Of a stretch of DNA of 64,000 nt, positions 39,328 through 40,009 are shown in pieces. Both the position numbers and the translations under genes were made by a program. Numbering within the stretch: the first letter of the stretch is position 1; the number at the start of each line of letters is the position of its first letter. The notes beneath the pieces are model-generated. The model was not told where the DNA came from. It did not search any database and was given only the letters and a program-made list of their open reading frames with translations. The DNA is from Escherichia phage NHEP11. The DNA is taken from sequence record PQ511149.1; one strand, written 5' to 3'.

Positions 39328-39515
39328 TATTCTTCTACATGTTGTTTACGGCCTTTCTTATCAATAAAGGTATATTCAACGAATGTTCCGATGTAGTCTT
39401 TATCTACATCATGTGGACTATTAATTGGACATTTGGTACGACAAATGCGTTCCCATTGACGAATAATTACTGCCTTATTCTTTGGGTCATATGGATGTGG
39501 ATAATGTATATTCAT
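39303..39515 (-). CDS. hypothetical protein
   Basis: ATG overlaps the macro-domain gene stop (ATGA). Confidence 0.4.
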   Translation of the reverse strand: MNIHYPHPYDPKNKAVIIRQWERICRTKCPINSPHDVDKDYIGTFVEYTFIDKKGRKQHVEEYCLKVTWL

Positions 39516-40009
39516 AATAATGGTTCCCAATCAACAATCACAATTTCTAGTTTAGTGGAATACGTATCTAAAATCTCTTCGATGACATCCCAGTTTCCAC
39601 CACCGATACCTGCACCAATTCTTGGCATATAAATTACAGGCTTTGTTGTCTTATTCTTTCCAAATTCATTTAATTCTATTATACAATTCATTAAAGCAGA
39701 GTACTCAAAATTAGGTCCCGGCTCAAACTGTGTATAAAGATTAAAGCAATAAGCTTTATGTGTCTTAAAATATTTTTCATAAACCGAATAAGTCCCGAGT
39801 TTAGACTCGTCTCCGAATTCGGTTTGAAGTTTATCGGCTTCTAGAATTTTTGGATAAGCCTTTGCTAATTGTCCTGCCACACCGGCGCCCATTGTATGAA
39901 AACAATTACACCCATGAGCAATATTATTACCTTTAGAAAACAGGGCGACAATATCGCCCTTGATATAGTTTTTAATCACTTGCTGCAAGTCCTCTAGTAT
40001 AAGAGTCAA
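39512..40009 (-). CDS. macro-domain protein (ADP-ribose binding/processing)
   Basis: 165 aa; GNNIAHGCNCFHTMGAGVAGQLAKAYP and IGAGIGGGNWD match macro-domain signature regions. Confidence 0.65.
   Translation of the reverse strand: MTLILEDLQQVIKNYIKGDIVALFSKGNNIAHGCNCFHTMGAGVAGQLAKAYPKILEADKLQTEFGDESKLGTYSVYEKYFKTHKAYCFNLYTQFEPGPNFEYSALMNCIIELNEFGKNKTTKPVIYMPRIGAGIGGGNWDVIEEILDTYSTKLEIVIVDWEPLL

Follow-up and report, generated by a model that had tools for sequence, protein, structure and literature searches.

A Mosigvirus ortholog of T4 tk.4 (adfM) encoding a stand-alone macrodomain protein with a proposed role in escape from DarTG2

The toxin DarT2 targets the thymidines of single-stranded DNA, and T-even phages carry AdfN, a NADAR protein whose activity is confined to the guanine adducts that DarT1 produces, while the phage factors AdfA and AdfB oppose DarT through binding (PMC11825919). 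Growing a T4 transposon mutant library on a host that expresses DarTG2 singled out tk.4 as the sole significant match; the gene is dispensable on plain K-12 without DarTG2, and its clean deletion made T4 sensitive to DarTG2, with M9 glucose at 30 C as the conditions (preprint, bioRxiv 10.1101/2025.11.20.689424). The gene was renamed adfM (anti-DarT factor Macrodomain) and its authors proposed, from genetics, that its product removes ADP-ribose from DNA (bioRxiv 10.1101/2025.11.20.689424). As early as 2006, tk.4 orthologs were recognized to contain an A1pp/macro domain (PMC1524935), and our full-text literature search returned, apart from this preprint, no link between tk.4 and ADP-ribosylation beyond the domain annotation. 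Gp104 of the jumbo phage PhiKZ, independently named AdfM, strips DarT2-made ADP-ribose from an oligonucleotide in vitro, rescues DarT2 toxicity and is required for growth on DarTG2 hosts, and its N23A mutant shows lowered activity (PMC13309987).

Macrodomains that act on such adducts are also known from cells. SCO6735 has Gln85 at the catalytic Lys position, cleaves thymidine-linked ADP-ribose and protects against DarT; the Q85A exchange abolishes its activity, and a water-mediated mechanism was proposed by the authors (PMC9411070). The catalytically dead mutants SCO6735 Q85A, DarG K80A and TARG1 K84A all still inhibit DarT in vitro (PMC9411070). TCT(ADPr)C is a substrate of both TARG1 and SCO6735. 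For the Macro domains of phages, Iyer et al. argued that they are mainly aimed at low-molecular-weight ADP-ribose derivatives (PMC9503650).

Gene limits and genome context

The gene under study lies on the minus strand of the window (the whole stretch of 64,000 nucleotides of Escherichia phage NHEP11 DNA that was analysed; PQ511149.1), where the program-made ORF list contained an ORF at 39512..40009 of 165 codons counted from a TTG. Homologues, in tblastn as well as in alignments, all align starting at residue 11 of this 165-aa ORF, and the ATG of T4 Tk.4 falls exactly on the same residue, which is a GTG in the window (39979..39977, minus strand). A putative GAGGA ribosome-binding site, read from the sequence (39990..39994, minus strand), is located 10 nt upstream of the GTG, and T4 has a corresponding GAGGA that precedes its tk.4 ATG by 11 nt. 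Because the homologues align from residue 11, the T4 ATG is found there and GAGGA lies upstream, the limits of the adfM/tk.4 gene are most likely 39512..39979 (minus strand), with a GTG start at 39979 and a predicted single-domain macrodomain product of 155 aa, as described by the Pfam, PHROG, T4 alignment, AlphaFold2 and Foldseek results below. The longest ORF, initiated at the TTG, was dropped in favor of the GTG at 39979, to which both the homologues and the T4 ATG align. Thus, of the limits given in a preliminary description of this DNA (39512-40009), the end at 39512 was retained and the TTG start at 40009 was replaced by the more likely GTG.

The in-frame upstream extension to the TTG (39980..40009, minus strand) lies inside the vs coding sequence and the homologues start at the GTG; this 30-nt stretch is probably not translated as part of the macrodomain protein. 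The vs (valyl-tRNA synthetase modifier) homologue is located directly upstream (39972..40319, minus strand), an identification that draws on the ORF list and on how T4 and relatives with 99% identity are annotated. The adfM start overlaps the end of vs (TAA stop at 39974..39972), and given this overlap a coupled translation from vs to adfM is possible.

A 3.1-kb stretch around the gene was 99% identical to Escherichia phage JN02 (Mosigvirus, RB69-like Tevenvirinae) and showed 98-99% identity to about 150 other phages, which by sequence places the window in an RB69-like T-even phage of the genus Mosigvirus. The upstream neighbors are homologues of T4 regB, vs.1 and vs, and small tk.x ORFs and the thymidine kinase gene (tk) follow downstream. 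The gene order regB-vs.1-vs-macro-tk.x-tk on one strand is common to the window, T4, Sf21 (Tequatrovirus), Melville (Gelderlandvirus) and F48 (Marfavirus), and the T4 gene at the corresponding position is tk.4, annotated as ‘phosphatase; A1pp motif’. The window protein and T4 Tk.4 were identical in 130 of 155 residues (84%) over their full length and without gaps. This gap-free identity, together with the synteny, establishes orthology by sequence and by position, and makes the window gene the Mosigvirus counterpart of T4 tk.4 (adfM). Near-identical copies in GenBank are labeled ‘macro domain protein’ or ‘phosphatase’.

The macrodomain gene sits within a long minus-strand gene run (484..59811). 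MotA-box-like middle-promoter patterns were enriched in the window (12 found compared to 3.6 expected), and a sigma-70 promoter scan of the window gave no excess (26 sites compared to 24.3 in shuffled sequence). Together with the regB, vs and tk neighbors, the minus-strand run and the MotA-box-like enrichment are consistent with the previous placement of the gene in an early region.

Macrodomain identity and active-site residues

The Pfam Macro profile PF01661 matched the protein with 28 bits (gathering score 22) in an alignment that spans positions 2-117 of the 118 in the profile, and PHROG 335, which carries a phosphatase name, matched with E=2e-67. Using the single sequence, matches to solved macrodomains were found for BT1257 (5e-11), Poa1p (2e-8), SCO6735 (5.5e-5), TARG1 (1e-3) and DarG (1e-3 to 7e-3). 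With a family profile, these matches reached 1.6e-17 for BT1257, 4e-17 for TARG1, 1.2e-13 for SCO6735, 2.9e-13 for Poa1p and 3.7e-12 for DarG, i.e., a roughly equal distance to all five, and coronavirus Mac1 was far weaker (1e-3). A homologue was present in 2803 of 50,697 phage records searched by tblastn, and the ORF is therefore not a chance match.

From 49 database homologues, AlphaFold2 predicted the three-layer alpha/beta/alpha macro fold with very high confidence (mean pLDDT 95.8, pTM 0.91). Searching the PDB with Foldseek, the top 18 matches were all natural macrodomains (probability 1.00, TM 0.67-0.81); the best among them were TARG1, Poa1p, the DarG macrodomains, BT1257 and SCO6735, a ranking that agrees with the profile search. 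The Pfam score above cut-off, the PHROG match, the model confidence and the Foldseek matches thus bear out the earlier naming of the product as a macro-domain protein. Based on the profile and fold rankings, the protein is assigned to the stand-alone ALC1-like class (TARG1/DarG/SCO6735/Poa1p), and not to the MacroD, PARG or viral Mac1 classes.

Conservation was counted across 118 aligned relatives, the most distant of which share 36% identity. Residues G33, A35, D49, G62, N80, Y82, Q84, P119, I121, G122 and G124 were invariant, and H22, N25, G31, I125, G127, G128 and others were conserved in at least 90% of the relatives. The Gly-rich loops and the Asn of macrodomains are all present. Asn25 (codon at 39905..39907, minus strand) aligns with the Asn of DarG and with N23 of PhiKZ AdfM, and Gly31-Ala32-Gly33 (39881..39889, minus strand), the predicted first phosphate-binding GxG loop, aligns with the GxG of DarG, TARG1, BT1257 and PhiKZ gp104. 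The second Gly-rich loop, Gly122-Ala-Gly-Ile-Gly-Gly-Gly128 (39596..39616, minus strand), is a putative substrate-binding loop by alignment to TARG1 and DarG. The invariance of ADP-ribose-site residues is the pattern expected of an active enzyme, and the active-site residues are intact and under selection.

Gln84 (codon at 39728..39730, minus strand), within the motif N80-x-Y82-T83-Q84, occupies the column of the catalytic Lys (K80 in DarG, K84 in TARG1). In the profile alignment this column holds K in TARG1; in the MAFFT alignment it holds K in the M. tuberculosis and T. aquaticus DarG macrodomains, PhiKZ gp104 and TARG1, and Q in BT1257. Gly126 stands at the position of TARG1 Asp125 in both alignments. 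Q84 would correspond to Gln85 of SCO6735, an equivalence reached transitively, through the TARG1 and DarG alignments and the statement made for SCO6735 (PMC9411070). DarG and TARG1 cannot act without this Lys, and its absence from the window protein is a counterpoint to a function as DNA eraser. Of the three residues mutated in solved Poa1p structures (His23, Ser30 and Phe152), the alignment with Poa1p gives counterparts for the first two, His22 for His23 and Thr29 for Ser30; the C-terminal half aligned poorly, and the match is broken into two parts.

Proposed function and alternative explanations

The resemblance to T4 Tk.4 and the analogy with characterized erasers make it likely that the protein is a Mosigvirus AdfM, a thymidine ADP-ribose eraser that lets the phage escape DarTG2. 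The protein would be made before replication from a prereplicative minus-strand block, as the synteny with T4 suggests. Host DarT2 would ADP-ribosylate single-stranded phage DNA at thymidines within TNTC motifs, and the ADP-ribose would be bound via the two Gly-rich loops and Asn25, judging from the conserved residues and the fold. By analogy, the N-glycosidic thymidine-ribose bond would then be hydrolyzed and replicable DNA restored, and the phage would escape DarTG2, the genetic demonstration of this last step being that made in the T4 ortholog. Since members of this family invariably have Gln at the catalytic Lys position of DarG and TARG1, a Lys-independent route is expected; by analogy, catalysis most likely follows the route of SCO6735, in which Gln would hold the distal ribose and an activated water would attack. 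A reversal of DarT-type DNA ADP-ribosylation had been put forward in the preliminary description, and it gains support through the 84%-identical syntenic T4 ortholog, the deletion of which rendered the phage DarTG2-sensitive (preprint).

An alternative explanation is that the substrate is a small ADP-ribose derivative, and that the protein acts as a Poa1p-like ADP-ribose-1''-phosphate phosphatase or as a hydrolase of O-acetyl-ADP-ribose or of an immune signal or toxin derived from ADP-ribose, in line with a general proposal for phage macrodomains. The nearest solved relative is the uncharacterized BT1257, and Poa1p is a small-molecule phosphatase, so the substrate could differ from that proposed or the range be broader. 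Poa1p is among the best matches by both sequence and fold, His22 and Thr29 align with its His23 and Ser30, and the argument of Iyer et al. on phage Macro domains (PMC9503650) points in the same direction, as does the ‘phosphatase’ annotation of T4 Tk.4, many relatives and PHROG 335. However, this annotation is inherited from the domain name, and the sole phenotype known for an ortholog is sensitivity specifically to DarTG2, a system whose toxin acts on thymidines of DNA; a small-molecule substrate in place of DNA is therefore unlikely. Such an activity could coexist with DNA de-ADP-ribosylation. It is also conceivable that the protein protects stoichiometrically and without catalysis, by sequestering or inhibiting DarT2 or by shielding ADP-ribosylated DNA. 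The missing catalytic Lys of DarG and TARG1 would fit such a role, for which AdfA and AdfB, which counter DarT by binding, provide a precedent (PMC11825919), and catalytically dead SCO6735, DarG and TARG1 mutants are still inhibitory to DarT in vitro (PMC9411070). Nevertheless, we regard protection by binding as very unlikely, as the ADP-ribose-site residues, among them the Gln on which catalysis by SCO6735 depends, do not vary among the 118 relatives, and the protein has nothing equivalent to the C-terminal domain through which DarG binds DarT.

In addition, the protein might reverse or edit marks that the phage's own Alt, ModA and ModB homologues place on host proteins through ADP-ribosylation or RNAylation. 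The genomes of T-even phages contain genes for three ADP-ribosyltransferases alongside that of a macrodomain. The products of T4 Alt, ModA and ModB carry arginine-linked ADP-ribose, however, a linkage which, to our knowledge, macrodomains are not known to cleave, whereas this macrodomain class acts on ester- or thymidine-linked ADP-ribose. Moreover, T4 tk.4 was a hit only with DarTG2 and is dispensable on plain K-12, and no ADP-ribosyltransferase gene adjoins the macrodomain gene. Considering the linkage chemistry and the DarTG2-specific phenotype of the T4 tk.4 deletion, reversal of Alt/Mod marks is highly improbable, and the earlier suggestion that the protein processes phage-made ADP-ribosylation found no support.

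Returning to the thymidine ADP-ribose eraser, we tentatively entertain, as a possibility of some weight, that T-even AdfM forms an independent Gln-type ALC1-like lineage with the motif N-x-Y-T-Q, which would remove thymidine-linked ADP-ribose independently of lysine and maybe act on a wider range of substrates than DarG does (such as RNA-linked or small-molecule derivatives). The use of macrodomains against DarTG2 would then have arisen in phages on two or more occasions, with the T-even type and the PhiKZ/DarG type as separate recruitments, and the large Gln-type family, found in about 2800 phage records, would serve to erase nucleic-acid ADP-ribosylation in general. The family raises the mechanistic question of how the thymidine-ribose bond could be cleaved when Gln replaces the catalytic Lys, and whether further substrates exist. 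Knowing which phage genes erase ADP-ribose helps host-range prediction, which is relevant to the choice of T-even-like phages for therapy.

Comparison with known systems

Overall, the finding was already known, as the domain has been recognized since 2006 and the November 2025 preprint ascribed an anti-DarTG2 role to the T4 ortholog; the window therefore adds another member and not a new principle. What is added here, as judged from sequence, is that the T-even protein is not a captured DarG, that it is distant from PhiKZ AdfM, and that its Gln84 is invariant in the family. Compared to T4 Tk.4, the gene occupies the same site between vs and tk.3/tk, its start likewise overlaps the end of vs, and the GAGGA spacing is 10 compared to 11 nt. 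The N-x-Y-T-Q motif and the conserved Asn are identical in both proteins, and two of the 25 substitutions are located in binding loops (A32 and G127 in the window protein, S and K in T4), where the residues of the window protein represent the family consensus.

Like the window protein, PhiKZ gp104 stands alone as a phage macrodomain, is comparable in size and is proposed to undo DarT2 marks on phage DNA, and both have the conserved Asn (N23 in gp104, N25 here) and the GxG loop. However, gp104 is DarG-like and belongs to a different subfamily that keeps the FPTK lysine, for which the window protein has Gln. With the PADLOC DarG model, gp104 scored 133 bits and the window protein 34 bits, and gp104 matched the DarG macrodomains of M. 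tuberculosis and T. aquaticus with E=9e-25 and E=3e-19, respectively. Membership in the same family as PhiKZ AdfM was rejected, as the relation is only remote (BLASTP E=6e-4 over 23 residues). PhiKZ gp104 is the sole phage macrodomain for which DNA de-ADP-ribosylation has been proven biochemically, and the same activity of the T-even protein is putative.

The DarG macrodomains of T. aquaticus and M. tuberculosis (PDB 5m31, 5m3e, 5m3i, 7omu) have the same fold and class as the window protein (TM 0.72-0.77), and the presumed substrate is alike by analogy, namely thymidine-linked ADP-ribose on single-stranded DNA. In contrast to DarG, the window protein has Gln84 in place of the catalytic Lys80 of the FPTK motif. 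The NCBIfam DarG equivalog NF048014 gave 33.2 bits (cut-off 250), aligned over model positions 4-146 of 338, and this alignment left no DarT-binding C-terminal domain of DarG in the 155-aa protein. No darT was found next to the macrodomain gene, the neighbors of which are vs and small tk.x ORFs. A captured DarG antitoxin was ruled out by the score of 33 compared to 250 bits and by the lack of the C-terminal domain, the catalytic Lys and a darT neighbor.

Human TARG1/OARD1 (PDB 4j5r) and Bacteroides BT1257 (2fg1/2afc) were the best profile and fold matches (E about 1e-17). TARG1 also removes thymidine-linked ADP-ribose, but its Lys84/Asp125 dyad is replaced by Gln84/Gly126 in the window protein. 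BT1257, the uncharacterized nearest solved relative, has the Gln and an H-x-C-N motif in common with the window protein. Similar to the window protein, SCO6735 (Streptomyces coelicolor, PDB 5e3b) is a stand-alone ALC1-like macrodomain with Gln for the catalytic Lys and without the Asp dyad partner, at about 22% identity in the structural alignment. It acts on thymidine-ADP-ribose outside any DarTG operon, but is the product of a cellular, DNA-damage-inducible gene and has a longer mobile loop (PMC9411070). Finally, AdfN (T4 gp30.3) differs in its unrelated NADAR fold and its specificity for guanine-linked ADP-ribose, and does not protect against DarTG2, but it occurs in the same phages and represents the same strategy, a stand-alone hydrolase that opposes a DarT toxin in the manner of an ‘orphan antitoxin’ (PMC11825919).

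Alleles and annotation of adfM

The macrodomain gene adfM, the ortholog of T4 tk.4, lies at 39512-39979 on the minus strand of the window and was compared with the macro genes of T4 (locus L002, 3923-4390) and Sf21 (locus L003, 1501-1980). The T4 Tk.4 protein is 84% identical to the Mosigvirus protein of the window and only 58% identical to that of Sf21, a fellow Tequatrovirus, so that the adfM allele lineages do not follow taxonomy. Despite this 58% protein identity, T4 and Sf21 do not differ at all over the opening 38 nt of the gene or over the 20 nt that precede it. Across phage records, identities form discrete classes (95-99%, n = 151; 80-90%, n = 225; <60%, n = 2414). 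This pattern suggests that T-even phages exchange adfM alleles by recombination.

The family is annotated inconsistently among records. In the closest relative, JN02 (locus L001, MT782071), the macro gene is annotated at 4213-4593 with just 126 codons, equivalent to 39512..39892 of the window; the annotated start is the internal Met30, and strand 1, His22 and Asn25 are thereby lost. Elsewhere the same protein is labelled ‘phosphatase’, ‘Poa1p-like’, ‘hypothetical’ or ‘O-acetyl-ADP-ribose deacetylase’.

The vs-adfM junction

On its upstream side adfM adjoins the homologue of vs, the valyl-tRNA synthetase modifier (39972..40319, minus strand), which it overlaps by 8 nt (GTGATTAA). In the T4 preprint on adfM (bioRxiv 10.1101/2025.11.20.689424), vs was the most depleted gene in minimal medium, and these neighbours are thus both conditionally important. 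Immediately beyond the end of vs, 20-38 nt downstream of the GTG, the 5' end of adfM contains a hairpin that resembles a terminator, with the sequence AGGGCGAUAUUGUCGCCCU and GUUUUCU after it (39942..39960, minus strand; 8-bp stem, -13 kcal/mol, z = -3.3 compared to shuffles). This hairpin could reduce the read-through that reaches adfM from vs. An alternative explanation is that it may merely reflect conserved codons. T4 and Sf21 carry the same hairpin, with a stem-loop sequence identical to that of the window; it was not found in Melville or F48, and the KGDIVALF motif is different in both.

Middle promoter patterns and strand layout

MotA-box-like patterns of T4 middle promoters (TGCTTnA, 11-13 nt, TAnnnT) were searched for and compared with shuffled sequence. 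The window is enriched in them (12 compared to 3.6 expected, a count reached by none of the shuffles), and 9 of the 12 are on the minus strand, with one inside adfM (39673..39698) and others at 4128, 7996, 9302, 16813, 19507, 24560, 26804 and 54086. As a candidate middle promoter, the pattern within adfM would drive the tk.x and tk genes downstream. The macro genes of JN02 and Sf21 also contain such a pattern, while none was found inside that of T4. Almost all window ORFs of at least 150 aa between 484 and 59811 (up to roughly 59.8 kb) are on the minus strand, and from 60304 onward the long ORFs are on the plus strand. This switch at 59811/60304 resembles the border at which, as in T4, a block of prereplicative genes meets an oppositely transcribed block.
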